Shown here piece by piece: positions 4,451-44,051 of a stretch of 64,000 nt of DNA. The notes under the pieces are model-generated. The model searched no databases and was not told the origin of the DNA. It saw nothing but the letters and a program-made list of their open reading frames with translations. The DNA comes from a bacterium (GTDB taxonomy: Bacteria > UBA8248). Location: the NCBI GenBank assembly GCA_965199855.1, contig OZ241326.1:2367486-2431485 (forward strand). Reading direction: 5' to 3'. The position numbers and the translations under genes were made by a program. Every line of letters starts with the position of its first letter. Within the stretch, counting starts at the first letter, position 1.

Positions 4451-5083
4451 ATGAGCGCACTGAAAGAACCCATCGTCGTGGTGAAATACTCGGATTACAC
4501 GTGACCGTTCTGCTACGTCGCCACCGTGGGTGGCACGCCCGTGATCGAGGAAGACTCCGACGTGGTCGTCGAATGGGTCAGCTGGGAGGGCAGACCCCCC
4601 GGGCAGGATTTCGCCGGCTACACGCCCGAGCAGAAAAAAGAGAACTACGAGAACCACCACAAGCCTCTCGCCGAGAAATACGGCGTGCCGCTCCGCCCGG
4701 CGGGGGCGGACTACCGCACGACGGGCCTCCACATGGCCACCTACTACGCCCGGGACAAGGGAAAATTCAGGGAATTCCGGGATCGCTGCTACAAGGCGCG
4801 CTGGGTGGACGACCTCGACCTCGAGGACGCGGAGACCATCGCCGCGCTCGGCGAGGAGGTCGGCCTGGCCGGGCAGGAAATCAAGGCCGTCATCGCCGAG
4901 GGGCGCTACATCGGCGCCCTGCGCAGCCAGCGCGCCCAGGGCAAGGGTCTGGGCATTTTCGGAATCCCCACCTTCGTGGTGGAGGGCAAGCTCTTCTGGG
5001 GCAAGGACGTCATCGACGACGTGCGCGCCGAGGTCGCCCGCGTCCGGCGGGAGCGGCTCGAAAAGCAAGAGGAAGAGGGCTAG
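4451..5083 (+). CDS. DsbA-like thiol-disulfide oxidoreductase selenoprotein (UPFC active site), 210 aa including Sec
   Basis: The ATG at 4451 gives MSALKEPIVVVKYSDYT-TGA(4502-4504)-PFCYVATVGG..., continuing in frame into track ORF 4526..5083. The TGA sits exactly at the first Cys of the DsbA CPFC motif. A GC hairpin gccacc-gtg-ggtggc (4520-4534) lies 15 nt downstream of the TGA, consistent with a bacterial SECIS. The GIFGIPTFVV DsbA motif is present. Confidence 0.7.
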
Positions 5084-16553: not shown

Positions 16554-17246
16554 TTACTCCTGGCCCGCCGCCGCTCTCGACAGAATCTCCCGAAAGCCCT
16601 CATACACCGCTTCGCCGAAGGCGGGCGGAGGGCGGACTTCCGTCAGTTTTCCGCCCTCTATCGTCTTCTCGGATGCGTATGGGTTATGAACGGCCTCCCC
16701 GTTCGGGAGGATCAGGGTAGGGCTGGTCATCGGCAGGCCCTCCTCGTCCCGCAGACGCATGGCTTCCCGGCAGTCGTCCATCACGCCTTCCTCGTATGCG
16801 CCCGATTCCAGGTCCGCACGCACCCTGTCGGCGTCGAGGCCTGCCTCCCCGGCGATTTCGCAAAGAACCGACTGCTCATCCACCCGCCTGCCCTCGAAGA
16901 AAAAGCCGCGCCGTATAGCGAGGTCGAACGCGCGCGCCTTTTCCGGATCTTGCGTCCAGGCGCTCGCGCAGGCCTGAAAAGCGGGAATCGTGCTTCTCAC
17001 ATATTCGTCATGCGGCCAGCTTCTGCACGGGGCGAGCGGCTCCTGCACCGCCACCAGAGGCCACTCCTGATCCACGATGTGGCGAGGCGCCGGGCGGTCG
17101 TTGATGATTTCGAGGGGAAACGCGCGCCATTTGAGGCGCAGCTTCTCCCGGAAGGCGGGCATCACCCTGTCCAGCCGCGCCGCGGCCATATATGCCCAGG
17201 GTCAATGGTATTCGTGAAAAATTTCGACAACCGCCGGATTCGCCAT
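16554..17246 (-). CDS. DsbA/FrnE-like thioredoxin-fold selenoprotein (UPWA active site), 230 aa including Sec
   Basis: Minus-strand ATG at 17246-17244, with RBS GGAGG 7 nt upstream. It gives MANPAVVEIFHEYH-TGA(17204-17202)-PWAYMAAARLDRV..., in frame with track ORF 16554..17189. The TGA is at the first Cys of the DsbA-family CPWC motif, and the second position is Ala. Phase was verified base by base. Confidence 0.65.
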
Positions 17247-17385
17247 ACCGCCTCCTCGCTGAGAACTTAAAAGTAACTCTTTCATCCTGACGCCCCGACG
17301 CCCCGCGCGCAACCCGCCGGGGATTCAGGCGCGCGGCCGCGGCTTCTTCCGCCGCCTTGATGCGCTCGCCGAAACGTGTGATACG

Positions 17386-17829
17386 ATGAAGGATATTCGA
17401 GGAGACGCCCGCATGAACCCCGACAGCCGGGCCATCGCCGACATTCTTTCAGCCGCCGGGACGATAGCCGTGGTCGGCCTCTCGGCCGATCCTTCCCGGA
17501 CGAGCCACCGAATCGCCGCCTATCTCCAAGAGGCGGGCTACCGCGTCATTCCCGTGAACCCCAACGTCGAGCGCGTCCTCGGGGAAAAGGCGCATTCTCG
17601 CCTCGGCGAGATCGAGGAGCGCGTCGATATCGTCAACGTGTTCAGACGCTCCGGGGAAATTCCGGCCCTGGCGGACGAGGCGCTGAAAAAGCGCCCGCGC
17701 GCGTTCTGGATGCAAAAGGGCGTCTCGCATCCTGCGGCCGCGCGCCGCCTCGAGGTGGCGGGAATCGCCTCGATTCAGGACCTCTGCATCAAGGTCGCCC
17801 ACCGCGGCCTCGCCCCCACCCCTCTATGA
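17386..17829 (+). CDS. CoA-binding domain protein (YccU-like)
   Basis: IAVVGLSADPSRTSHRIAAYLQEAGYRVIPVNP. Confidence 0.75.
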   Translation: MKDIRGDARMNPDSRAIADILSAAGTIAVVGLSADPSRTSHRIAAYLQEAGYRVIPVNPNVERVLGEKAHSRLGEIEERVDIVNVFRRSGEIPALADEALKKRPRAFWMQKGVSHPAAARRLEVAGIASIQDLCIKVAHRGLAPTPL

Positions 17830-17899
17830 GAGCGGGCCGCTGCGATTCTCCCGAAAATTTCATCGCTACGCGCTCCTGGCGCTCGCCGCGCTGACGGCG

Positions 17900-18685
17900 A
17901 TGGGAATTCCGTCTTTTCTGGAAAACGTTCTTCTGTATCACCCCCACCGGGAGCTCGACCTGACGCCCGAAAGCTACGGCGTCCCATACGAAGACGTCCG
18001 TTTCCGCGCCGCTGACGGCGCGCGACTTCACGGCTGGCATGTTGCGCCGAAGGAGGCGGGCGGCCCGGTTCTCCTGTGGGCGCACGGCAACGCCGGCAAC
18101 CTCTCGCACCGGGCGGAGAACATCGCGCTCATTCAAAGGGAGCTGGGCGCGGGCGTCTTCGCGTTCGACTACCGGGGCTACGGGAAAAGCGAGGGCAGAC
18201 CGAGCGAGGATGGCCTCTACGCCGACGGCAGGGCCGCCCACGACTGGCTGCTGGCGCGCGCGCCGCGTGAGCGCGTTTTCCTGTTCGGCCGCTCGCTGGG
18301 CGCGGCCGTGGTCGTCCGACTCGCCTCGGAGGGAAGAAAGGCGCGCGGCCTCATCCTGGAGAGCCCTTTCGAGAGCACCCTCGCCATGGGCAAGAAGATG
18401 TTTCCCTTCCTGCCGGTCGGCTGGCTCGTCTCCAAGAAGTTCGACAATGCGTCCATGCTCCCGCAAGTGAAGACGCCCCTGCTGATCCTGCACGGCGACC
18501 GGGACGGCATCGTGCCCCACGCCCAGGGGAGACGGCTCTTCGAGGCGGCGCGCGCGCCCGGCAAGCGCTTCTTCACCATCGAGGGGGCGGGCCACAACGA
18601 CACGTATCTCGCGGGAGGCGCGCTCTACTGGAAGGCGTGGCGGGATTTTCTGCAAAACCCCGAGGGCGGGCGAAGCGGGAGCTGA
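17900..18685 (+). CDS. alpha/beta-fold hydrolase
   Basis: Nucleophile elbow GRSLG and the LILHGDRDGIVP catalytic-triad region. Confidence 0.75.
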   Translation: MGIPSFLENVLLYHPHRELDLTPESYGVPYEDVRFRAADGARLHGWHVAPKEAGGPVLLWAHGNAGNLSHRAENIALIQRELGAGVFAFDYRGYGKSEGRPSEDGLYADGRAAHDWLLARAPRERVFLFGRSLGAAVVVRLASEGRKARGLILESPFESTLAMGKKMFPFLPVGWLVSKKFDNASMLPQVKTPLLILHGDRDGIVPHAQGRRLFEAARAPGKRFFTIEGAGHNDTYLAGGALYWKAWRDFLQNPEGGRSGS

Positions 18686-20032: not shown

Positions 20033-20182
20033 GCTTCCCTCCGCCCGGATGGCTGAAAATTCGATGGAAAATGCGGACCCCGCGTTATGGAATCGCTCCC
20101 CTCATCGTATAGAAGTATTTGCATCCCCTCAATCGTTCTCTTAGAGTATTCTTACGCCTTCCCCCCCGCTCTGGAGACCGTG

Positions 20183-20707
20183 ATGAAGCGAATCCGCATC
20201 CCCGTCATCGCCGCCGCCCTGGCGGCCGCCCTGTGGGCGATACATCCGGCGACCTCCTCGGGGCTCGGGCCCGGCGCGCCCGCCCCCGAACTGAAGGGCG
20301 GCCCCTGGCTGGGCGTCGAGAAGCCCCTTCAACTGAAGGAGCTGCGCGGCAAGGTCGTGCTTCTCGACATGTGGACGTTCGGCTGAATCAACTGCGTGCG
20401 GGAGATTCCCGCGCTGCGCTCGTGGCACGAGCGCTACGGGGACAAGGGGCTGGTCGTCATCGGAAACCACGCGCCCGAGTTCGGCTTCGAGAAGAGCAGG
20501 GCGAACGTGGAGAAGGCCATCGCCAAGCTCGGCATCGCCTACCCCGTTGTGATGGACAACGGGTTCGTCAACTGGAACGCCTACGGCAACCGCTACTGGC
20601 CGACGAAATACCTGATCGACAAGAAGGGAATCGTGCGCTTCAAGGCGATTGGCGAGGGGGGCCACGAGCGCGCCGAGGCGATGATCAAGAAGCTGCTCGC
20701 CGAGTGA
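20183..20707 (+). CDS. periplasmic thioredoxin-like (TlpA/redoxin-type) selenoprotein with a UINC active site, 174 aa including Sec
   Basis: Signal peptide [19 protein letters not shown], then ...[15 protein letters not shown](20384-20386)[10 protein letters not shown]... The TGA joins track ORFs 20087..20386 and 20396..20707, which share one frame. It aligns with TlpA WCxPCRxEMP as U-x-x-C. A hairpin gcggga-gat-tcccgc (20398-20412) lies 11 nt after the TGA. Confidence 0.65.
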
Positions 20708-21432: not shown

Positions 21433-21507
21433 TCCGGCGTAGCTCAACGGCAGAGCAATCGGCTGTTAACCGATGGGTTGTAGGTTCGAATCCTACCGCC
21501 GGAGCCA
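21433..21507 (+). tRNA. tRNA-Asn (anticodon GTT)
   Basis: Acceptor tccggcg/cgccgga, anticodon stem atcgg/ccgat with loop ctGTTaa, T-arm gtagg-ttcgaat-cctac, discriminator G, encoded CCA. Confidence 0.85.
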
Positions 21508-21577
21508 TGGGGGAGGGGGGCAACGGGCCGCCCATTGCAAGTTCTTGACTCCAAGACCGGCGAAAGGAGGCTTGACC

Positions 21578-23455
21578 GTGCTCTTTGCGGAAGCCAAAGA
21601 TAGGATCCGGAGCTGGATTCGCCGCCTTATCAAGTGGCTGACCAAGCCCGAATATCCCACAGAGGCACCCGAACCAATTCCATCGAACGAGGCAAGGCCG
21701 GAGACAACCCACATACTGGCGTCTCCCCCAACTACGGCATCGCCAAAGTCAGAACCGGCCTCTCCTTCCGACCCAGGCGAAGGCACCGACGCGGAACCCA
21801 AGACAACGGACGATTCAGCAAGCAAAGAAGAGCCCAAGAAAGAACCGCGCAAGATAGGACCGAGACGTATCAAGCCGGACAACAATCGCCAAAAACCAAA
21901 TCGCCCCGCACAACTCACCCGCCCCTTCACTCCCAGGGCGGAGTTGCTCTGCCGCCAAGCTCGGGGTTCATCCTGGGAGTTAATTCTGTCCGTTCCCGAA
22001 GAATGCGGCATTGTGAAAATACAACATGACAACAACCCCTTGTCAGTCGACGAAAACGGCGAATGTCGCCCGTCATCATTCTCCGGCACCCTGAAAGTTG
22101 AATACAGCGACGGAAAAACTGACGAGATTATCCCATTGGTCTGCGACAAGACGCCGCTGGTTTTTAAAATGCGGAACGGCTGGCAAGGGTCTGGCCGCAA
22201 AATTAGCGGAATTACTCGTGGGCACTTCATTGTTTTCACGCCTGCTGAATGGAAGCGAACGGGTCGCGTTCCGGTAGAAGCCGAGAACTGCGTGGACGCT
22301 GACTTCCGGGCGCACTACTTCCATGCGCGCAAGAACGACGCAAACGATGAAATTGGCGGATTTAAGGAATATGAAGTCCCGTTGACCCCAACCGGATTCG
22401 AGTTGGAAGGTACTAGAATTTTCGATGATTCTGAAGATGGGGAACTATTCGTTGATACAGTTCCAAGGGTGAAGCCCGCGTCCGGCATCGTCTGGGCGCG
22501 CGTGGGCGAAGAGCGGCAGAGAGGCTGGTCTGGAGAAAATTTCAGACCCGATGACAAATCTCTCAAGAAAGTTCTGAATGGCCGCCAGAGGCGATTTTAT
22601 GTCCGCGTCTATGACGACGCGCCCAAGTTGATGGACAGCGGCGAGTTCCGCTATTACGCGGATCTGCAAGATATTCAGGTGAATGGCGTATCGTATTCGC
22701 AGGACATGCTGTTGCTCCCCACGTCGGACGGGCATTCGCCAACAAGACTGCAATTCATTGCCCGGAATGGAGAGCTGATCTCCCAAGATCGGCTGGAATT
22801 GAAAGGAAACAACCCTCACGCGGCCATTACGCCAGATGGCGTTTTGACAATAGCCCCACACCCGGATGGCGATGAAATAACCTTAGTCTTAAAAGCCAAT
22901 ACAAGTAGCGTGGCCGTCAAGCTCCACTTGCCGCGCGTCTGGTGGAGGCTTGAGCGATCAGGAGAGGAGCCAAGCAGGTGGGGCGACCAACCCCTAAATA
23001 TGACGCGCGATGAGTTTCGAGATCGGGCCAATAAGAGCACCGTGATAAAATTGCGATTGCCTTCACGCATCAAATCTGCCGATGTGGGATTTGGTGATAA
23101 TCTGGACCGGAGACTTCCCATAGGGGACGGATTGCCACTTGGGAACTTTATCGATTATACGGAAATCGACAATCCATCAAGTGAAGAGGTCGAACTGCGA
23201 ATTCGATGCAATAGTGAAAGGCTAACTCTAATCCAACTTGCCGCTGACTTACCTGCCCCTACAAAGAAGCCTCTAACAAACAATATGCCAGACACTTGTC
23301 CAAGCGGCAACAAGGGATTCAGCTGCGGCGAATTGCGGAAGGCCAATCTCACAGCCGCCGATGCGAAACGCTTGCAATTACGTATCGACAGGCGACGCCG
23401 CAGCGAACACAATAGCAATATAGACAGGCTCATGGAGATTGGAAACGATGCCTGA
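21578..23455 (+). CDS. island protein A: 625-aa protein of unknown function (N-terminal amphipathic helix, Pro/Thr/Ser/Glu-rich linker, ~480-aa beta-rich C-terminal region)
   Basis: The track ORF starts inside the tRNA; the likely true start is GTG 21578, with GGAGG 8 nt upstream. The protein runs VLFAEAKDRIRSWIRRLIKWLTKPEY..., then a PTS/E-rich segment, then ...GHFIVFTPAEWKRTG... No nuclease, methylase, ATPase or other catalytic motif was recognised by eye. It overlaps gene B by 8 nt. Confidence 0.6.
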   Translation: MLFAEAKDRIRSWIRRLIKWLTKPEYPTEAPEPIPSNEARPETTHILASPPTTASPKSEPASPSDPGEGTDAEPKTTDDSASKEEPKKEPRKIGPRRIKPDNNRQKPNRPAQLTRPFTPRAELLCRQARGSSWELILSVPEECGIVKIQHDNNPLSVDENGECRPSSFSGTLKVEYSDGKTDEIIPLVCDKTPLVFKMRNGWQGSGRKISGITRGHFIVFTPAEWKRTGRVPVEAENCVDADFRAHYFHARKNDANDEIGGFKEYEVPLTPTGFELEGTRIFDDSEDGELFVDTVPRVKPASGIVWARVGEERQRGWSGENFRPDDKSLKKVLNGRQRRFYVRVYDDAPKLMDSGEFRYYADLQDIQVNGVSYSQDMLLLPTSDGHSPTRLQFIARNGELISQDRLELKGNNPHAAITPDGVLTIAPHPDGDEITLVLKANTSSVAVKLHLPRVWWRLERSGEEPSRWGDQPLNMTRDEFRDRANKSTVIKLRLPSRIKSADVGFGDNLDRRLPIGDGLPLGNFIDYTEIDNPSSEEVELRIRCNSERLTLIQLAADLPAPTKKPLTNNMPDTCPSGNKGFSCGELRKANLTAADAKRLQLRIDRRRRSEHNSNIDRLMEIGNDA

Positions 23456-26400
23456 AACTCGTGACATTGAGAGATGGGTTGATACGATTGGTGCTCGCTA
23501 CGAAAATTATTTGAAAACCTCGTTTTACTTCAAGGACTCGAAACTCCGTGAATCGTTTCAACATGCGTTACAGGGTGGCCGCCTGCTGAAAGGGCCTTTT
23601 CCCGAACCGGCGCGCGACTTCAAAAAAGGCGTAGACGCGAGGCAACTGGCGAAAGAATGTTTTCCTGACAGGGGCGGCGCTCTACTTCCGGCATTACGGA
23701 AAGGCGCTTTGTATGTCCATCAAGAGCGCGCCGTGCGTTGTACTCACACAGACCAGCGGAACATCGTGGTCGCCACCGGTACCGCCAGCGGCAAGACGGA
23801 GAGTTTTCTCTACCCGATTCTGTTCGAGTTGTACCGCCAATACTTGGCGGGAGAACTCAGCGAGCCCGGCGTGCGGGCCATGATCCTGTATCCGATGAAC
23901 GCGCTCGCCAACGATCAAAGAGAACGCCTTGGCGAAATTTGCGAGCAGCTACGCAAGGAGGGTTCAGATTTTGCCCCCATTTTCGGACAGTACATCGGAC
24001 AAACACCCGAAGATCAAAGAGACCGTCGGCGTAACGCCTCTACTCGGGAAGAGGAACGCCTGCCCGGCGAGTTGGTTTTCCGGGAAGAGATGCGGAACAA
24101 TCCGCCGCATATCCTGCTGACCAATTATTCCATGCTGGAATACCTTCTTATTCGTCCGAGCGACAGCCCGCTTTTCGACGTAGACCGAGGCAAACACTGG
24201 CAATTCATCGTGCTTGATGAAGCTCACCAGTACCGGGGCGCCAAAGGGATGGAGATGGGCATGTTAATCCGGCGTCTCAAGCAACGGTTGCGCGATGGAG
24301 GGCGCGAAGATCGTTTCCGCTGCATCGCCACCAGCGCGACCATCGCCACCGGCGAAGGCGAAGAAGACAAACAGGTCGTCGCGAAATTCGCCGAGGAACT
24401 CTTTGCCGAGCCTTTTCGGACATCCGGCATCATTTTGGGAGAACACGAACAACAGTCACTCAAAAAGGAGCCGCGTCGCTTCCATGCGTTCGCGCGCGCC
24501 TTGGAAGGGGCTTTTTTGCTCCATGATGACGGTGAGGATGCGGTCATCCTCAATCGCAAGAGAGAGGTTGGGTGCCGCGCCGAGCCCTTGGAAATCGCGT
24601 TATGCCGGGAATGCGGACAACACTATTACGTCGGCCGGGAAAATGATGGCAAGTTGAAAGAAGCGGTGCGAGATCCCAGTCATCCGAAATTTGGCGTGGA
24701 TTATTACCTGCCATTGGAAAGCGATAATGCCGCTTCTCATGTCTTATGCCGATGCTGCGGCCAACTCTCCGCCGACGGGTCTGCTTGCGATTGCGGCGAC
24801 AGCGCCTCAATTCTCGTCAAGAAGTGCGAATCTCATAAAGAACATCCGGATCACCTGAAGAAATGCGAAGCCTGCGGCTATAGCCGCGGCGGCATCGGCG
24901 ACCCTGTTCAGGAAATCGTGCACGGCTCCGACGGCCCCAACACCGTCATCGCGACCGCCCTTCACGAGTTGCTACCGGAAAGCAGGCGCAAGGTGCTGGC
25001 GTTCGCCGACAGTCGGCAGGAGGCCGCGTTCTTCGCCTGGTATGCTCAGGACTCCTATACGGAGGTACGCGACCGCAATTTGATGTTGCGCGCTTTGAAG
25101 GCTGGGGCAATCGATTCTGAAGGACTGTCCATTGACGACCTCAAAAACCGACTGTTCAAACAGTGGGAACAGTCTGGTCTGTTTGAGAGAGCGGATACCA
25201 GGGAAAGCAAGGACCGAAAGGTGCTGACGGCAATCCTCGGAGAAGCGTTGACGGACGAGAAGAGGCTGTCCTTAAGTGGAGTCGGTTTGGTCAGGTGGTT
25301 CGTCAAAATCCCGGACGACTTGAGACCGCCGGCCTCAATGCTGGAGCCGCCTTGGAATCTAACGGATGAAGAAGCGCGCCGCCTTCTCGCATATCTTTTA
25401 GACGAGTGGCGTGTGCGCTACGCCTTGGCTTTGCCGGACGGTGCAGGGACCCCGTTATGGAACGACGTATCACCCCTGCGGCGGCAACAGGCTTACGGTC
25501 TGGGCACCCCCGGCAAAAGAAAAAACATCGCAGAATGGGGCAGCTCCCAATCCGCAATCGTTGGTCACTTCCTGCGCCGGCTCCTTATGCGAAATGGACA
25601 GTCCGGCAATGACGACCATTCACAATCGATCATGCTGATGAAGGATGTATGGAGCGCATTGCGCGAGCGGGATAAAAAATATGGCCAAAAAGCCGACCAA
25701 ATTCTTTCGTCCGCTAACACAAACGGGACATTCCGCCTCAACTCGCGCTGGCTGCGGACCAAGCTCGCCGAGCCATCTGAAATTTGGGAGTGCGACACGT
25801 GCGCAAGCCTGAGCACCCACAACATTCACAACATCTGTCCTCGAAACGGATGCCCCGGAAATCTGTCGCCTGCCGGCCAATCACGGCTTGAAGAAAACCA
25901 CTATCGAATCCTTTACGAAAAACCCGGCCTGCCACCCACGCTATGCGCTGAAGAACATACGGCTCAAATCGAAAGCAGCGAGGCGCGCCAGAGACAGGAT
26001 CGCTTCAAAAGCGGACAAATACACCTCCTCAGTTCCTCAACCACGTTTGAGGTTGGCGTCGACTTGGGCGATCTCGAGGTCGTATTCCTCCGCAACGTGC
26101 CGCCGGAGCCGTTCAACTATACCCAGCGCGTCGGGAGGGCGGGACGCCGAGAAACGCCGGGATTGGCGCTGACCTACTGCCGCCGCAACCCACATGACTT
26201 GTACCACTACGAAGACCCGGAAAAGCGCGTGATAGAGGGAAAGGTGCAACCCCCAAGGCTCCGGATGACCAACGACAAAATCATCTCCCGGCACATGGCC
26301 GCCGTCGCTCTGTCCGCATTTTTCAAGAATGAGGGAAACGAGGAACGCTTCAGGAATGTCGAATCCTTCATCGGCGATTGGGAGAATCCTCGCGCCGTTT

Positions 26401-27716
26401 CGGACCTGAAGCAGTTTTGCGAAAACAACGAGGCGTTGAAGAATTCGCTACTCCGGAGCGTGCCGGAAGCCATGCGCGAAACAACCGGACTCAACAGCAA
26501 TGATTGGATTAAAATCATCGCCGGCCCGGACAGCCGCCTTGACCGAGCCGAGAAAGAAGTTTCCGACGACTATCAGCGCATGGAAGCGCTTGAAAAAGAG
26601 TACTCGGACAACAGCAAATATAGCGACGCGAAACGTATCAAGCAACGGAGGGATACCATCGCTAACGAACAAACCTTGACCTTCCTCTCACGCAAAGCCG
26701 TAATTCCCAAATATGGCTTTCCGGTTGACGTGGTGGAACTCGATACCCGGGAACTCGATACCCGGCCGCAAAACAGAAGTTCGGCAAGAGTATCGTTGCA
26801 AAGAGACCTGTCTCAAGCCATTGCCGAATATGCGCCGGGCGGTAAAGTCGTGGCGAACAAGCAAGAGTGGGAATCATGCGGTGTAAAAGTAATTTCCGGA
26901 AAGCAATTTCCGGTCAAGCGTTACGCTTACGACGATGCCCGCTATTTTCAGCAATGTGATGAAGAGGGCAATCTTCCAAACAGCAGAAGCAGAAGATACC
27001 TTTCTCCGGTCTTCGGTTTCGTGACACCGCTATTTGAGAAACCCAAGAAGCCGCGGGGACGAGCGCAACGCCTATACACAACACGACCGTTTTTTCCGGG
27101 TTTTGATGAAGAACCGGAATCCAAGGACCTGTTCGGGATTACGGTAACAAAAGCGCAACCGGGAAGCTTGGTCATCCTGTGCGAGGGGCGGAATCAGAAA
27201 GGGTTCTATATTTGCCGCACTTGCGGAAGCCACATGACGAAGCCAGCGAGCGCGCACAAGACGCCGGCAGGATCCAAATGTACCGAGAGATTAGAGAAAT
27301 TTTCGCTCGGGCACGAGTTGGTTACGGATGTAGTGCGCCTGCAATTTTCAGACTTGGGCGACCAGTGGGACGCTTACTCCCTCGCTTACGCCATACAGCT
27401 GGGCGCGTCGAAAACAATGGATGTGCCGGACACGGACTTGAACGTCACTATCACTGGCGACAAAGCATCGGACGAGACGGCGATTGTCTTATATGACAAT
27501 GTTCCCGGCGGTGCCGGTCTGGTGGCGCAGTTGGAACACGAGGGTATATTTCGAGAAATGCTCGGCAATGCCCGAGAACGGGTACAAGGCGGATGTGGCT
27601 GTGACTCAAGTTGCTACGGTTGTCTGCGCAGCTACCGCAACCAGTTCGCGCACCCGCACTTGAATCGCAAAAGAGCTCAAGCCTTTTTACCCGCCGTAGG
27701 CGTCGGGGCGGAATAG
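23448..27716 (+). CDS. island protein B: large DExH-box SF2 helicase with a Zn-ribbon insertion and C-terminal DUF1998/MZB Cys4 domain (DruE/MrfA/DrmA-like)
   Basis: The track start at 23439 is TTG; ATG 23448 gives MPETRDIERW... Motif I VVATGTASGKTESF, Ia ILYPMNALANDQ, II VLDEAHQY, III ATSATI, VI QRVGRAGRRETPG. An insertion between the RecA-like halves carries four CxxC pairs (LCRECGQHYY..., CRCCGQ, CDCGD, CEACGY). The C-terminus CRTCGSH...C..GGCGCDSSCYGCLRSYRNQFAHPHL matches the DUF1998 signature. Confidence 0.85.
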   Translation: MPETRDIERWVDTIGARYENYLKTSFYFKDSKLRESFQHALQGGRLLKGPFPEPARDFKKGVDARQLAKECFPDRGGALLPALRKGALYVHQERAVRCTHTDQRNIVVATGTASGKTESFLYPILFELYRQYLAGELSEPGVRAMILYPMNALANDQRERLGEICEQLRKEGSDFAPIFGQYIGQTPEDQRDRRRNASTREEERLPGELVFREEMRNNPPHILLTNYSMLEYLLIRPSDSPLFDVDRGKHWQFIVLDEAHQYRGAKGMEMGMLIRRLKQRLRDGGREDRFRCIATSATIATGEGEEDKQVVAKFAEELFAEPFRTSGIILGEHEQQSLKKEPRRFHAFARALEGAFLLHDDGEDAVILNRKREVGCRAEPLEIALCRECGQHYYVGRENDGKLKEAVRDPSHPKFGVDYYLPLESDNAASHVLCRCCGQLSADGSACDCGDSASILVKKCESHKEHPDHLKKCEACGYSRGGIGDPVQEIVHGSDGPNTVIATALHELLPESRRKVLAFADSRQEAAFFAWYAQDSYTEVRDRNLMLRALKAGAIDSEGLSIDDLKNRLFKQWEQSGLFERADTRESKDRKVLTAILGEALTDEKRLSLSGVGLVRWFVKIPDDLRPPASMLEPPWNLTDEEARRLLAYLLDEWRVRYALALPDGAGTPLWNDVSPLRRQQAYGLGTPGKRKNIAEWGSSQSAIVGHFLRRLLMRNGQSGNDDHSQSIMLMKDVWSALRERDKKYGQKADQILSSANTNGTFRLNSRWLRTKLAEPSEIWECDTCASLSTHNIHNICPRNGCPGNLSPAGQSRLEENHYRILYEKPGLPPTLCAEEHTAQIESSEARQRQDRFKSGQIHLLSSSTTFEVGVDLGDLEVVFLRNVPPEPFNYTQRVGRAGRRETPGLALTYCRRNPHDLYHYEDPEKRVIEGKVQPPRLRMTNDKIISRHMAAVALSAFFKNEGNEERFRNVESFIGDWENPRAVSDLKQFCENNEALKNSLLRSVPEAMRETTGLNSNDWIKIIAGPDSRLDRAEKEVSDDYQRMEALEKEYSDNSKYSDAKRIKQRRDTIANEQTLTFLSRKAVIPKYGFPVDVVELDTRELDTRPQNRSSARVSLQRDLSQAIAEYAPGGKVVANKQEWESCGVKVISGKQFPVKRYAYDDARYFQQCDEEGNLPNSRSRRYLSPVFGFVTPLFEKPKKPRGRAQRLYTTRPFFPGFDEEPESKDLFGITVTKAQPGSLVILCEGRNQKGFYICRTCGSHMTKPASAHKTPAGSKCTERLEKFSLGHELVTDVVRLQFSDLGDQWDAYSLAYAIQLGASKTMDVPDTDLNVTITGDKASDETAIVLYDNVPGGAGLVAQLEHEGIFREMLGNARERVQGGCGCDSSCYGCLRSYRNQFAHPHLNRKRAQAFLPAVGVGAE

Positions 27717-38520: not shown

Positions 38521-39397
38521 CCCCCGGGAATTCCTCCTCGACGCGCAGGTCGCGCTCGTCGTGGCCGGCGAAGAGGAGGCCGGGGGAGGCCGCCATGTCC
38601 TTCACGGCGTCCAGGGCGCGCAGGGCGTCGTCCACGTGGACGTGGACGCCCGGCGGAATCATCGACTCGAAGCTGCGGTAGAGACAGGCCGCGTCCACCG
38701 CCAGCGCCGCCCAGCCCCCCTTCGCCCGGAAGCGGACGACCTGGAGGCCGGGCGTGTGCCCGCCCACCCGGTGGAGGCGGACGCCGTCGGCGATTTCCGC
38801 CTCGCCGTCCACGAGCTCCAGGCGGCCCGCCTCCAGCAGCCGCTCGGCTTCCGCCAGATCGCCCAGAAAATGGTTGAGGAAGTGGTATGCGCCCGCGTCG
38901 CTCCGCCAGAAGTCGAGCTCGCGCCTCTGGAGCCAGAACCGCGCGGAGGAGAACAGCCGGGGCGAGGCGAAATGATCCCAGTGCAGGTGGCTCACGACGA
39001 GCCGCTCCACCTCCGAGGGTCTGAGTCCGAAATGCGCGAGAAGCTCCCGCTGGGAGCGGTAGCCCTCGTAGTCGGGATTGCGCGCCCGCTGCGCCTCCTC
39101 GCCGAAGCCGGTGTCCACCACCACGGGCGCGCCGCCCCCCTCGGGCATGAGCAGCCAGAAGAAGTAGGGCAGCCGCCGCGTCCGCCCCGACTCGCTCAGA
39201 TACAGCAGCCAGGAGGCGTCGCACCGACGCCAGCCCTGGCACAGGGCGTAGAGCCGCCAGGTCGCCTCGCGCAAGATGCGGTCCTCCCCCTTTTGTTGTC
39301 CGCGCCCGCCGATTATGCCATTATTTTCGAGGACGCGAACTTCTACGGCCCGGACAACCGCGAACCACCCCCGAAGGGCGCCTGTCTTGGACAACAT
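38504..39397 (-). CDS. MBL-fold metallo-hydrolase (AHL-lactonase-like)
   Basis: HLHWDH (HxHxDH) zinc motif in VVSHLHWDHFAS. The N-terminal start is uncertain; the annotated Met of the track ORF would overlap mrpA. Confidence 0.7.
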   Translation of the reverse strand: MLSKTGALRGWFAVVRAVEVRVLENNGIIGGRGQQKGEDRILREATWRLYALCQGWRRCDASWLLYLSESGRTRRLPYFFWLLMPEGGGAPVVVDTGFGEEAQRARNPDYEGYRSQRELLAHFGLRPSEVERLVVSHLHWDHFASPRLFSSARFWLQRRELDFWRSDAGAYHFLNHFLGDLAEAERLLEAGRLELVDGEAEIADGVRLHRVGGHTPGLQVVRFRAKGGWAALAVDAACLYRSFESMIPPGVHVHVDDALRALDAVKDMAASPGLLFAGHDERDLRVEEEFPGVRRLA

Positions 39398-41732
39398 CCT
39401 CATCGCCGTGTTCTTCCCGTTTCTGGCGGCGCTCATCGTCCCCCGGTTCGCCGCGCGATTCCGCCGGCGCGCCGCGTGGTTCGCCATGGCGGCGCCCCTC
39501 GCAAGCCTCGGGGCGCTGCTCTCCCTCTACGGCGAATGGGCGGCGGGGGGCGGGAAGACCCTCGTCCGCCCCCTCTCCTGGGTGCCGGCGGCGAACGTGG
39601 AAGTCTCCTTCATGACGGACGGCCTGAGCCTCATGTGGGGCTTTCTGGTGGCGGGCATGGGCGCGCTCATCGTCCTCTATTCGCATTGGTATCTCCCCGA
39701 AGACGAGGCGCTCGGGCGCTACTACGGCTTTCTGCTCGCCTTCATGGGGTCGATGCTCGGGGTGGTGTTCTCGGATCACCTGCTCTCGCTCTTCATCTTC
39801 TGGGAGCTGACGAGCGTCACCTCGTTCTTCCTCATCGGCTTCTGGTCGGAGCGCGGCGCCTCGAACTACGGCGCGGCCAAGGCGATTCTCATCACCGGAA
39901 GCGGGGGGCTCGCCATGCTGGGGGGCTTCCTGCTCCTGGGCGAGGCGGCGGGCGAGTGGCGGCTCTCGCGGCTCATCCTCACGCCCGACGCGGCCGCGAA
40001 GGTCTCCCTGGGCGTCTTCCTGCTCATCATCCTGGGGGCGGCGACCAAGAGCGCGCAGTGGCCCTTCCACATCTGGCTGCCGAACGCCATGGAGGCGCCC
40101 ACGCCCATCAGCGCCTTCCTGCACTCGGCGACGATGGTGAAGGCGGGGGTCTATCTGCTCTCGCGCTTCTACCCGATTCTGGGGGCGCACCCCGCCTGGG
40201 GCTACGTCGTGACGGGCTTCGGCATGACGACGATGATCGCGGGCGGCCTGCTCTCCCTGCGCGCCCATGACCTCAAGGCCATCCTCGCCTACGGGACGAT
40301 CAGCCAGCTGGGCCTCCTCGTCACCTTCCTGGGCTACGGGGGGCGGGGCGCCGTCGTGGGCGCGACGCTCCACCTCTACAACCACGCGGCGGCGAAGGCG
40401 GCGATGTTCATGACGGTGGGCGTCATCGACCACGAGGCGGGCACGCGCGACGCGCGGCTGCTGGGGAACCTGCGGAAGCTCATGCCGAAAACCCACCTCC
40501 TCGCGCTCCTCGCCGCGCTCAGCCTCATCGGCGTCCCGCCCCTGGGCGGCTTCATCACCAAGGAGATGCTCTACGAGGCGAGCCTGCGCCCCGGAGGCCC
40601 GGGCGCGTGGGGCTGGTTCTGGCCCTGGCTCACCGTTCTGGCGGGCGCGTTCACCGCGCTCTATCACCTGCGCTTTCTGGGCGAGCCCTTCTGGCGGGCG
40701 GCCGAGGGGGAGGCGCCGAAGCGCCCGCACGACCCGCCCTGGGGGATGCTCGCCGCCCCCGCCGCCCTCGCGCTCCTCGCGCTCGCCTTCGGCCTGGCGC
40801 CGTGGATCATCCAGGACGCCCTCGTCGCGCCGGCGGCGGAGGCGACCCTGGGCGGAGGCGCGCGGCTCGACCTCCGCCTGGGTCTCTGGCACGGGGTGAA
40901 CGCGCCCCTGCTCATGTCTGTCCTCACCATGGCGCTGGGCACCGCGCTCTACTTCGGCTTCGCGCGCGTGAAGGCGCTGCTCGACGCCTCGGCGCGCGCG
41001 TGGGGGAGCGCCCCCGCTCCCGACAGAATATACGACGCCTGCATCGGCTGGATGCGCGGCGGGGCGCGGGAGATCCTCCTCCTCCTCCAGGACGGGAACC
41101 TGAGAAGATACATGCGCTGGACGATGGCGGCCCCCGCCGTCCTCGTCCTGGGCGTCGTCTGGCCGATGCGCTGGGGGGAGAGCGTCTTTCCCCGGACGCT
41201 CGAGGGCGTCTCGCCCCTCCTCGTCGTGATCGCGGCGATGATCGCGGCCTCCGCCCTCGCCACGGCGCTCTTCCGGCGGCGCATCCCGGCGATTCTCTCC
41301 CTCGGCGTGATGGGCTATTCCATCTCGGGGCTGTATCTGCTCCTCAAGGCGCCGGATCTGGCGCTCACCCAGATCATGGTCGAATCGGCCTCGGTCGCGC
41401 TGTTCCTGCTCGTGTTCCGGCGCCTGCCCGAGCTCGAACCCGTCCCCTCCTCCCCCGCCAGAAAGGCGCGGGACTGGGGAATCGCCGCCGCCCTGGGCGC
41501 CTTCACGGCGCTGGGCATGGCCGCCGCCATGAACGCGCACCACTTCCGGACGATCGCGGACTACTTCATGCGCACGAGCAAGCCGGTCGCCGGCTTCAAG
41601 AACGTGGTGAACGCGATCATCGTCGACTACCGCGGCTACGACACGCTGGGGGAGATTACCGTGCTCGTCATCGCGGGCATCGCCATCTACGCCCTCACGC
41701 GGCTGACGGGGGGGGTTCGATGGGATCACTGA
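39383..41732 (+). CDS. mrpA: Na+/H+ antiporter subunit MrpA/MnhA (with fused MrpB-like domain)
   Basis: NuoL-like multi-TM protein ([28 protein letters not shown]). Start uncertain (TTG 39383 proposed); the track ORF begins upstream in a GC-rich leader. Confidence 0.8.
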
Positions 41733-42157
41733 TTCTCCAGACGGTCGCGCCCGTCGTCCTCCACCTGACGCTCCTGTTCTCGCTCTTTCTGCTCCTCTAC
41801 GGCCACAACCAGCCGGGGGGCGGCTTCATCGCGGGGCTGATGACGGCGGTGGGCGTCATCCTCCAGTGGGTGGCGGTGGGCGCGGAGGAGGGCCGGCGGC
41901 GCTTCCACTGGCCCTACGAGACGATTTTCCTGCTCGGGCTGGCGCTCTCCACCCTCACGGGCCTGTGGGGCTATCTCAAGGGGGCGTATCTCAAAAGCTC
42001 GATCTACCGCTTCGTCCTGCCGTTCATCGGCGAGGCGGAGCTGTTCACCGCGTTTCTGTTCGACGTAGGAGTCTATGGCGTGGTGGTCGGGGTGGTGATG
42101 TCCATCCTCACCAACCTGTGCCCGCCGCCGGAGGGGACGAACCCCCAGGGGCGGTGA
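41720..42157 (+). CDS. mrpB: Na+/H+ antiporter subunit MrpB/MnhB
   Basis: The ATG at 41720 overlaps the mrpA stop; 145-aa membrane protein ([40 protein letters not shown]). Confidence 0.75.
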
Positions 42158-42228
42158 CGCCCGCGGGGGGCGGAGCTTCCGGCGTCCGCCCGCCCCGCCG
42201 GACGAGAAGAAGCGGAGGAGGAAGGGCC

Positions 42229-42579
42229 ATGGTCTGGACGCTGGCGGCGACGATAGGCGCGCTGGTCGCGGTCGCCTCCTATCTCATCATGCAGCGCAGA
42301 ATCATCCAGGTCGTGCTGGGCATGTCGGTGCTCAGCCACGCCGCGAACCTGATGATCGTCGCCTCCGGCTGGGTGGGGGACGGAAAAGCCCCCATCGTCC
42401 CCAAGAAGGAGGGCTTCCTCGACCCGTTCCTCTACGTGGACCCCCTGCCCCAGGCCATGGTGCTGACCGCCATCGTCATCAGCCTCGCGGTGACGGCGTT
42501 CCTGCTCGTCCTCGCGCTCTTCGCCTACCGCAGGTTCGGGACGGACGACATCGACAAAATCAGGAGGCTCAGGGGATGA
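42229..42579 (+). CDS. mrpC: Na+/H+ antiporter subunit MrpC/MnhC (NuoK-like)
   Basis: MVWTLAATIGALVAVASYLIMQRRIIQVVLGMSVLSHAANLMIV. Confidence 0.8.
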   Translation: MVWTLAATIGALVAVASYLIMQRRIIQVVLGMSVLSHAANLMIVASGWVGDGKAPIVPKKEGFLDPFLYVDPLPQAMVLTAIVISLAVTAFLLVLALFAYRRFGTDDIDKIRRLRG

Positions 42580-44051
42580 GCGCCCTCTTCCCCCTGCTCG
42601 TCGTCTGGCCGCTCGCCACGGGCGTCGTTCTCTTCCTCGTCCGCAAAAGGCGCGCCCTCCAGGAGAGCCTGAGCCTCCTCTCGCTGCTGGCGAACCTGAT
42701 GCTGGCCGTCGCGCTCCTGAGCGCCACGGCGGACGGGACGATATTCGTCCACAGGATGGGGCTGTGGCCCTTCCCCTACGCCATCGTTCTCGCCGCCGAC
42801 CGGCTCGCCGCCACGCTCCTGTGCCTCTCCGCCTCCATCGTGGGGGCGTGCGCCGTGTTCGCCGGAAGCTACCTCACCGACGAGCAGCGCAGGGAGGCCT
42901 TCAGCCCCCTGCTGCATTTTCTCCTGATGGGGATGCAGGGCTGCTTCATCACGGGCGATCTGTTCAACCTGTTCGTCTTCTTCGAGGTCATGCTCATGGC
43001 CACCTACGCGCTGCTCGGCTTCCACTACAGCCTCGACCAGCTCGAGATGGCCTTCAAATACGTCTGCCTGAACCTCATCGCCTCGGCCCTGTTCCTGATC
43101 GGCGTCTCGCTGCTCTACGCCCAGACGGGCACGGTGAACATGGCGGACCTCGCCGGGAAAATCGCGCTCCTGGGCCCCACGCCCCTCGTCGTGGCGACCG
43201 CCCTCGTCTTCATCTTCACGTTCAGCGTCAAGGCGGCCATCTTCCCCATGCACCTGTGGCTGCCCTCGGCGCATTCGATATCGCCCACCCCCGTCAGCGC
43301 CATCCTGGCGGGCGCGCTCGTCAAGGTGGGCCTCTACGCCGTCATCCGGTGCGCCACGCTCATCTTCCCGGCCGCGTTCCTGGAGCTCCAGCCGGGCCTC
43401 ATCGCCCTCGGGCTGTGCACCATCGCCATGGGCGCGCTCGGCACCCTCTCGCAGACGAGCCTGAAGCGCATCCTCGCCTACAGCACCATCAACCAGCTCG
43501 GCTACATCGCCTTCGCGGTCGCCCTGCTCTCGCAGGCGGGGCTGGCGGCGGCGGTCTTCTACATCGCCGCCCACGCCTACCTGAAAAGCGCGTTGCTGCT
43601 GGGGGCGGGCCTCAGCCAGAAGCTCACCGGCACGGTGGACCTCGAGGAGATGGGCGGCATGATGGGCAAGGCGCCCTTCGCCAGCCTCCTGATGCTCGTG
43701 GGCTTCCTCTCCCTGGCGGGCTTCCCGCCCTTCGCGGGCTTCTTCGCCAAGCTCTTCGTTCTGCAGGCGGGGTTCGCGCAGGGGGCGACCCTCGCGACGG
43801 GCGTCGCCCTGGGGTTCGGCGTCATATCGCTCTACTACAACTTCACGACCTATCAGCGCTACGCCTGGGGAACGGGCGGAGGCGAGGTCGCCGCGGCGTC
43901 TCCCGCCCTCTACGGGGCCGCGGCCTTTCTCTCCGCCTTCGCGGTCATCTTCGGGGCGGGCGCGTTCTGGCTCTTCGAGTGGGCGCAGCTCGTGGCCGCC
44001 CAGATCACGAGGCCGGAGCTCTACGTCGCCGCCATGCGGCAGGCCGGATAG
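42576..44051 (+). CDS. mrpD: Na+/H+ antiporter subunit MrpD/MnhD (NuoN/M-like)
   Basis: 491-aa multi-TM protein with AIFPMHLWLPSAHS; its start overlaps the mrpC stop. Confidence 0.85.
   Translation: MSALFPLLVVWPLATGVVLFLVRKRRALQESLSLLSLLANLMLAVALLSATADGTIFVHRMGLWPFPYAIVLAADRLAATLLCLSASIVGACAVFAGSYLTDEQRREAFSPLLHFLLMGMQGCFITGDLFNLFVFFEVMLMATYALLGFHYSLDQLEMAFKYVCLNLIASALFLIGVSLLYAQTGTVNMADLAGKIALLGPTPLVVATALVFIFTFSVKAAIFPMHLWLPSAHSISPTPVSAILAGALVKVGLYAVIRCATLIFPAAFLELQPGLIALGLCTIAMGALGTLSQTSLKRILAYSTINQLGYIAFAVALLSQAGLAAAVFYIAAHAYLKSALLLGAGLSQKLTGTVDLEEMGGMMGKAPFASLLMLVGFLSLAGFPPFAGFFAKLFVLQAGFAQGATLATGVALGFGVISLYYNFTTYQRYAWGTGGGEVAAASPALYGAAAFLSAFAVIFGAGAFWLFEWAQLVAAQITRPELYVAAMRQAG

Follow-up and report, generated by a model that had tools for sequence, protein, structure and literature searches.

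Form 1 of the DsbA-like selenoproteins (motif UxxC, U being selenocysteine, Sec; COG2761/FrnE type) entered the literature in 2005 with the Sargasso Sea selenoproteome (PMC1088965), and a count made in 2016 found it in 41 organisms. A 2026 catalogue of 119 selenoprotein families and subfamilies, in which different Sec motifs count as different subfamilies, lists two DsbA-like forms, form 1 with UxxC and form 2 with DxxUP (PMC13188914); form 2 carries a crotonase/enoyl-CoA hydratase family annotation, with MDP6049977.1 as its representative (PMC13188914, Table 1). Other selenoprotein families commonly have Sec motifs with a single nucleophile, such as UxxS, UxxT, UxxG and UxxV. Among proteins with cysteine at the active site, FrnE of D. 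radiodurans (DR_0659; PDB 5CNW and 5XWH) is a cytoplasmic disulfide reductase, with a CPWC site that is regenerated by a C-terminal CxxxxC tail (PMC8945050). A review of Deinococcus thiol reductases (PMC8945050) describes DR_2335 (PDB 7DK9 and 7DKA) as DsbA-like, with only one conserved Cys and without a reported function, so single-Cys DsbA-like proteins give no mechanistic precedent. Here we describe a gene in a 64,000-nucleotide stretch of contig OZ241326.1 from a bacterium of the GTDB lineage UBA8248; we refer to the whole stretch as the window and number positions from its first letter. We consider it very probable that the minus-strand open reading frame (ORF) at 17246–16554 is an intact, 230-residue, cytoplasmic DsbA/FrnE-like selenoprotein in which a UGA is recoded, which would work by a single-nucleophile route and would represent a Sec branch of the single-Cys clade.

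The in-frame UGA and the hairpin downstream of it

The complete coding sequence (16554–17246, minus strand) comprises 230 codons including Sec15, ends with a TAA stop codon at 16556–16554, and is predicted to encode a DsbA/FrnE-like thioredoxin fold. A Shine-Dalgarno sequence read from the DNA, GAGGAGG (17251–17257), lies 4 nt 5' of the ATG start codon (17244–17246), and the distance from this ATG to the in-frame TGA (17202–17204) is exactly 42 nt, or 14 codons. Translation gives MANPAVVEIFHEYH, then the TGA, with ..VVEIFHEYH-U-PWAYMAAARL.. as the context of the putative Sec. This arrangement of ribosome-binding site, ATG and TGA is the one reported in a preliminary description of the locus, and it is present at the coordinates given there.

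We compared the gene with its relatives using a scan of one genome per species, which yielded 41 loci from metagenome-assembled genomes (MAGs) labeled Nitrospinota, Nitrospinaceae, Candidatus Tectomicrobia or 'bacterium', and placed by GTDB in UBA8248. The tblastn matches, made from query residue 1, span residues 1–228 in at least 38 genomes; 39 loci cover the TGA site, and all 39 have a TGA at the same codon. Codon-level counts were made over 40 sequences, in all of which the TGA is present. The start codon is ATG in 37 of these, GTG in two and ACG in one. Since most related loci have an upstream in-frame stop codon 3–4 codons before the ATG, the frame cannot begin earlier and the true start is fixed. 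H11, E12, Y13 and H14 on one side of the TGA, and P16, W17, A18 and Y19 on the other, are invariant (40/40), and the codons around the TGA vary freely (CAC/CAT, GAA/GAG, TAC/TAT, four Pro codons and four Ala codons). The preliminary description had made conservation of the residues before the TGA a test of its reading, and the synonymous variation at the four invariant positions speaks for it. We conclude from the alignment that purifying selection at the protein level continues across the stop codon, and that the conservation of the TGA with its flanks goes far beyond what chance would give.

The residues ahead of the TGA also belong to a recognizable domain. With Cys in place of the TGA, residues 6–165 matched positions 1–162 of the 191-position Pfam DSBA profile (PF01323; E=7.5e-14; 52.4 bits, with a cut-off of 25.6). 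Because the match starts at residue 6, the 14 upstream codons correspond to strand beta-1, which begins at residue 6, and not to a leader; the protein has no signal peptide. An exhaustive HMMER search with residues 16–230 found 261 more distant homologs, with 71 alignments that reach the active site. The column of the TGA is Cys in 70 of these 71 distant full-length homologs.

Prediction of a selenocysteine insertion sequence (SECIS) had been suggested for the minus strand just past the TGA (17200–17150), and a hairpin under strong RNA-level constraint is found at the predicted place. RNAalifold, applied to an ungapped alignment of the region with 38 distinct sequences, gave a consensus core hairpin of the bacterial SECIS (bSECIS) type, UGGCCGC-GGC-GCGGCUG (17172–17188, minus strand), with the apical loop GGC at 17181–17179. 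The hairpin starts 13–15 nt past the UGA, and 20 nt separate the UGA from the apical loop. In the core helix, 90.8% of alignment cells pair. One compensatory pair is seen, in loci L035 and L040, where G-C is replaced by U-A through an Ala-to-Ser change (GCG>UCG) together with the synonymous change CGG>AGG. All four published bSECIS constraints agree with the hairpin (loop GGC, stem of 5–8 bp, spacing of 20 nt, −9.5 kcal/mol). The RNA-level constraint is clearest in codon usage. Codons 21–24 (GCC GCG GCG CGG) have synonymous entropies of 0, 0, 0 and 0.29 bits over the 40 sequences, with the value of 0.29 being due to the compensatory AGG, and the remaining ~63 comparable codons, that is, amino-acid-conserved codons with at least four-fold degeneracy, have 0.6–2.1 bits each. 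The constraint on the hairpin codons persists in the AT-richer marine members of the family.

These data bear on the way the gene is currently annotated, with the TGA as an ordinary stop, a 211-residue product starting at the ATG at 17189, and the 14 upstream codons serving as a small leader ORF or remaining untranslated. The ORF list of the window shows only this 211-residue part, the ATG is present at codon 20 in the window, and every database entry is called in this way: a search of 5.8 billion proteins returned 63 close relatives (clusters), all called from a Met after the TGA or later, with coverage of at most 92%, and none of the 63 with a selenoprotein annotation. However, codon 20 is Met in 22 and Leu in 18 of the 40 sequences, so the start annotated in databases is absent from nearly half of the genomes. 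Moreover, nine upstream residues are invariant or nearly so, vary synonymously, and form strand beta-1 of the DSBA domain; the shortened product would lack both this strand and the active site; and neither the alignment of the TGA with the Cys of homologs nor the constrained hairpin is expected of a plain stop codon. We therefore regard termination at this TGA as extremely improbable. The comparative evidence indicates instead that the UGA at 17204–17202 is recoded to Sec through a bSECIS inside the coding sequence: SelB with Sec-tRNA(Sec) would bind the hairpin at 17188–17172, and the UGA would be decoded as Sec.

Active site, fold and proposed catalytic route

In sequence comparisons, FrnE, SCO1869 and DR2335 came out as the best relatives with a solved structure. 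FrnE matched with E=2.7e-9 (about 1e-18 in a profile comparison) at an identity of about 20%, and shares the beta-1/alpha-1 active site, with VDIWSDIACPWCY in FrnE corresponding to VEIFHEYHUPWAY here. In the alignment with FrnE (VDIWSDIACPWCYIGKRRF), Cys22 falls on the TGA and Cys25 on Ala18, such that the two Cys of CPWC are matched by Sec and Ala, respectively. The comparison with CPWC homologs that had been suggested thus places the TGA on the first Cys, and the earlier assignment of the product as FrnE/DsbA-like agrees with the Pfam match, with FrnE as best solved relative and with the fold. The alignments place Sec15 at the position of the attacking Cys of thioredoxin-fold oxidoreductases, at the N-terminus of helix alpha-1. 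The closest full-length Cys-type homolog is 39% identical, and in an alignment of 18 sequences the only invariant columns are Cys/Sec15, Pro16, Arg24 and Phe116.

An AlphaFold2 (AF2) model of residues 16–230, which leaves strand beta-1 and the Sec outside, has a mean predicted local distance difference test score (pLDDT) of 86, and the modeled structure shows a thioredoxin fold that includes an inserted helical domain and a cis-Pro loop. Foldseek ranked FrnE first (also solved with glutathione, GSH), followed by a functionally uncharacterized Vibrio protein, a putative disulfide isomerase of Nitrosomonas, the cytosolic disulfide reductase DsbM, 2-hydroxychromene-2-carboxylate (HCCA) isomerases and kappa glutathione S-transferases (GSTs). 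For the top matches FrnE, DsbM (solved with GSH) and HCCA isomerase, the probability was 1.0 and the template modeling (TM) score about 0.6. The presumed cis-Pro loop is T174-S175-P176 (16719–16727, minus strand); the MTSPT columns show little or no variation, and S-P aligns with the G-[ST]-P or V-P loop of homologs and FrnE. It is preceded by a family-specific insertion of four residues, LPMT. In a second conserved element, R55-H-I-V-D-Q-E-W-P63 (17058–17084, minus strand), every residue is invariant in the 40 sequences apart from the nearly invariant His56. The motif belongs to the first helix following strand beta-2 (residues 40–53 of the AF2 model, residues 55–68 of the protein), and is probably part of a substrate or cofactor pocket.

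The position three residues after the Sec distinguishes the protein from CXXC enzymes. A CXXC dithiol site is absent, the motif being U-P-W-A in all 40 sequences, and Ala18, at the place of the resolving Cys (codon 17193–17195, minus strand; GCA in the window), is encoded by GCA, GCG, GCC and GCT in 9, 17, 9 and 5 sequences. Because Ala18 is invariant and yet encoded by all four Ala codons, the alignment indicates that this Ala is a selected feature, with selection acting on the amino acid. The replacement of the second Cys of CPWC by Ala, already noticed in the preliminary description, is therefore a property of the whole family. The FrnE-type CxxxxC tail is also absent: the C-terminus, ..EGFREILSRAAAGQE, has no Cys, and there is no conserved Cys column past residue 209.

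With Ala at this position a CXXC-type intramolecular bond is impossible, so a single-nucleophile route is expected, and by analogy we infer a redox mechanism of this kind. The target of the selenolate would be a disulfide, an oxidant or an S-thiolated substrate; the attack would give a mixed selenenylsulfide or a selenenic acid; and this intermediate would be resolved from outside, by a low-molecular-weight thiol or a reductase, in the manner of monothiol glutaredoxin-type enzymes or of GSH-linked cytosolic DsbA-like ones. Alternatively, the last step might use a family-specific residue, Cys74, as an internal resolver.

Cys74 (codon TGC, 17025–17027, minus strand) qualifies the claim of the preliminary description that the protein has no resolving Cys. 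The claim holds for the CXXC position; it may not hold for the protein as a whole, since a remote candidate is present in all 40 sequences. Cys74 itself is found in 39 sequences, nine of which also have Cys72, and the remaining sequence has Cys72 instead. We therefore considered two-residue catalysis, in which Cys74 (or Cys72), situated in the loop between the thioredoxin part and the helical part, would resolve Sec15, giving an intramolecular selenenylsulfide that an external reductase then reduces, comparable to atypical 2-Cys peroxiredoxins and enzymes of the glutathione peroxidase (GPx) type. The near-invariance of the candidate Cys is consistent with such a role, and the column is F, W or Y in all Cys-type homologs, so Cys74 goes along with the Sec form; the loop is also modeled fairly confidently (pLDDT about 82). 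By contrast, mono-selenol U-P-W-S lineages (L045 and L047) have no Cys in the loop, a single Cys suffices in most Cys-type relatives, and the proximity of Sec15 and Cys74 is putative. We view resolution by Cys74 as possible but rather doubtful. A bolder version makes the protein a DsbA-fold enzyme that depends obligately on Sec and has a new catalytic layout, pairing the selenolate either with Cys74 of the distant loop, to give an inter-domain selenenylsulfide unseen in characterized DsbA-like proteins, or with an unknown low-molecular-weight thiol of UBA8248/Nitrospinota. This version we think unlikely.

The fold comparison raises a different question, namely whether the protein is a disulfide oxidoreductase at all. 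It could be a thiol-transferase or isomerase of the kappa-GST/HCCA-isomerase type, in which the Sec would activate a bound low-molecular-weight thiol or form a transient adduct with a small molecule. In the Foldseek comparison, kappa GSTs (1r4w, 3rpn) and HCCA isomerases (3fz5, 2imd) scored nearly level with FrnE, these enzymes work with one active-site residue in the corresponding place, and the strongly conserved RHIVDQEWP pocket motif suggests a defined ligand. However, the sequence is clearly closer to FrnE/DsbA-type proteins, Sec is typical of redox catalysis, and no pathway genes are linked to the gene at the locus. A transferase or isomerase function thus seems improbable, and we favor the single-nucleophile redox route for the selenoprotein.

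Relationship to other DsbA-like proteins

Members of the U-P-W-A family share 51–86% identity and, in a rough neighbor-joining tree, are monophyletic and nested among CPWA and CPWC sequences. These comparisons indicate that the U-P-W-A gene is fixed over a deep lineage labeled Nitrospinota or Tectomicrobia (GTDB UBA8248), and that it is the Sec-bearing branch of a single-Cys (C-P-W-A) DsbA-like clade. Of the 71 distant homologs, 38 have Ala at +3, 22 have Cys, nine have Ser and two have Gly. Since CPWA is the most common state in these Cys relatives (38/71), the mono-nucleophile site appears to predate Sec, and we conclude from the alignments that it was not created when Sec was acquired.

In-frame TGA codons at the catalytic position were also found in three distant, truncated hits: SDIH-U-PWS (L045, 1–135), SDYL-U-PWC (L046, 2–106) and FDYV-U-PWS (L047, 950–1099). 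Identity of the U-P-W-S relatives to the U-P-W-A protein does not exceed 37%, and in the rough tree all three hits fall in clades other than that of the U-P-W-A family. The scatter of U-P-W-S and U-P-W-C relatives over different clades suggests that there were several independent Cys-to-Sec replacements. As a separate observation, many database entries that start with 'M(A)AVRL' or 'MRL' may be unrecognized selenoproteins.

We compared the protein with each of the described systems. Like form 1, it belongs to PF01323, has Sec at the same catalytic position followed by Pro, and has its predicted SECIS within the coding sequence just past the UGA; it differs from form 1 in having Ala at +3 in all 40 sequences, an H-E-Y-H flank rather than D-x-x, Cys74, and the four-residue insertion. 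Form 2 is also of the PF01323 type and is described with U-P and no Cys at +3, and it may be another mono-selenol DsbA-like protein, comparable to the U-P-W-S relatives L045 and L047. The U-P-W-A protein differs from it by Glu at −3 (40/40) and by being a single domain of 230 residues with no crotonase part, a Pfam search of the selenoprotein having returned no crotonase domain; this separation is tentative and draws on the published description of form 2. FrnE differs in having CPWC and the CxxxxC tail. The single-Cys DsbA-like proteins exemplified by DR_2335 (7DK9, E=1.6e-5) share the one conserved nucleophile with Ala, Ser or Gly at +3, as in 49 of the 71 distant homologs, whereas they have Cys and not Sec, and no Cys74. 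Finally, kappa GSTs, HCCA isomerases and DsbM share the DsbA-like fold, the inserted helical domain and a single key residue at the N-terminus of alpha-1, at identities of only 11–20% and with a catalytic Ser (GST kappa) or a CXXC motif (DsbM) where Sec stands here; judging from Foldseek matches and entry titles, these enzymes use low-molecular-weight thiols. NCBIfam has no model for the U-P-W-A family. The U-x-x-A motif, missing from both the 2026 catalogue and NCBIfam, would add a form or subfamily to the known DsbA-like selenoproteins; it is no new kind of system.

Probable selenocysteine use in the genome and the meaning of the family

The window contains two further Sec candidates, both thioredoxin-fold genes in which a TGA takes the place of the catalytic Cys. 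A DSBA-domain ORF at 4451–5083 (plus strand, 210 residues; Pfam DSBA E=4e-26) has an in-frame TGA at 4502–4504, MSALKEPIVVVKYSDYT-U-PFCYVA..., with the context ..KYSDYT-U-PFCY.. and hence the UxxC motif of form 1, and about 20 nt past its UGA there is a GC-rich hairpin with loop GUG/CGUGG. The minus-strand gene had been announced as the second DsbA-type selenoprotein within 13 kb, and this candidate bears that out. We rejected the idea that the two are recent paralogs, the fold being all that they have in common. The other candidate, a TlpA/ResA/redoxin-like gene with a signal peptide (about 20180–20707, plus strand; TGA 20384–20386; WTFG-U-INC), lies 3.2 kb from the U-P-W-A gene, matches Pfam AhpC-TSA (2e-13) and is split into two ORFs by gene callers; its TGA is kept in 29 syntenic loci, and the resolving Cys of its UxxC motif is Tyr in one (L033). 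Both candidates have GC-rich hairpins placed similarly to that of the U-P-W-A gene, with loops that begin with G. At the level of the lineage, BSepDB lists UBA8248 MAGs (Nitrospinota in NCBI) among the ten bacteria richest in selenoprotein genes, with 48–54 each (PMC13326102). The U-P-W-A gene is present in one of these MAGs, FO_M_Nitrospinota_01, at the locus L025 of our comparison.

A number of points weigh against our interpretation of the gene. First, selA, selB, selC (tRNA-Sec) and selD were not found in the window (ARAGORN, Rfam, and Pfam on 20 large ORFs), in 42 loci, or in flanks of about 600 kb; we infer the Sec machinery of the source genome on the basis of the window's other selenoprotein genes and of published work on the lineage. 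Second, the support for selenium incorporation is comparative. Third, the bSECIS test that the hairpin passes is also passed by 16% of all TGA triplets in this window of 66.5% GC, so the SECIS call rests on conservation and not on the fold. Folding of single sequences was accordingly discarded as evidence, with z = −0.03 and −0.85, no better than shuffled sequences. Covariation is limited to one base pair, with the rest of the stem invariant. A possible extended lower helix around the core hairpin, ACCCUG/CAGGGU (17164–17202, minus strand), appears in minimum-free-energy folds of single sequences and is weakly supported: 76% of cells pair over the 38 sequences, and the helix is absent from the RNAalifold consensus. 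Fourth, the catalytic scheme is drawn by analogy, and the single-Cys DsbA-like proteins, including DR_2335 with its solved structure, have no known function. Lastly, the conserved neighborhood of the gene reflects chromosome order only and gives no functional clue.

That no machinery gene was found in the regions covered would also suit UGA readthrough that involves no selenium, with Trp, Cys or Gly inserted by near-cognate or suppressor decoding or by a variant code, or else a pseudogene or an assembly error. However, TGA is the stop codon used most often in the window, with 26 of 42 predicted genes ending in it, which excludes a reassigned genetic code; retention of the TGA in 40 independent assemblies rules out an error or a pseudogene; and the conserved SECIS-type hairpin, in a lineage documented as rich in selenoproteins, fits Sec. 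We find these explanations hardly credible, and retain decoding of the UGA as Sec.

The gene itself stands alone, with a divergent CoA_binding_2/alpha-beta-hydrolase pair on one side and convergent ydhR-like genes on the other; the downstream ydhR/PNPOx/QueC genes are conserved. The CoA_binding_2 gene (147 residues) and the alpha/beta-hydrolase gene (261 residues) occupy 17386–18685 on the plus strand and diverge from the selenoprotein gene in most loci (L001–L039); six loci have no CoA-binding gene, and the hydrolase gene is nearer to the selenoprotein gene there. We rejected this neighborhood as a clue to function: the synteny is lineage-wide and is missing in the most distant members (L035 and L040). 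A scan for promoters and terminators found nothing above background.

Two other features of the window were recorded. An island of roughly 6.3 kb (21508–27716, plus strand; 52–57% GC, with 66.5% for the window) lies directly 3' of a tRNA-Asn gene (21433–21507). It encodes a 660-residue protein with no Pfam or PADLOC match and a 1425-residue DEAD/Helicase_C/MZB helicase (PADLOC DruE, E=3e-154), which looks like Druantia type III. In L042, where the copy of the U-P-W-A gene is 99% identical, GmrSD_N and AAA_15/DUF3696 genes stand at the same site instead, which marks the region as a variable defense island. Genes for subunits of an Mrp/Mbh-type cation:proton antiporter or a complex-I-like enzyme (Proton_antipo_M, MbhD, MbhE; 39276–44051, plus strand) look like ordinary metabolism.

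The U-P-W-A selenoprotein does not change what is known of Sec decoding or of the capabilities of the DsbA fold, and will not surprise a specialist. All 63 database clusters of the family are now called without their active site, and a family model aware of the Sec codon would put this right throughout a phylum rich in selenoproteins. The nearly frozen 13-nt hairpin offers a clean natural example of a SECIS in a lineage whose SelB is unstudied. For the family, the comparisons suggest that Sec was recruited several times within a FrnE-related, single-Cys DsbA-like clade that has a solved structure and no known function. Were the new catalytic layout to prove true, it would define a function for this whole uncharacterized clade. 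Sec, by marking the catalytic residue and pointing to redox chemistry, provides a handle on the single-Cys clade.

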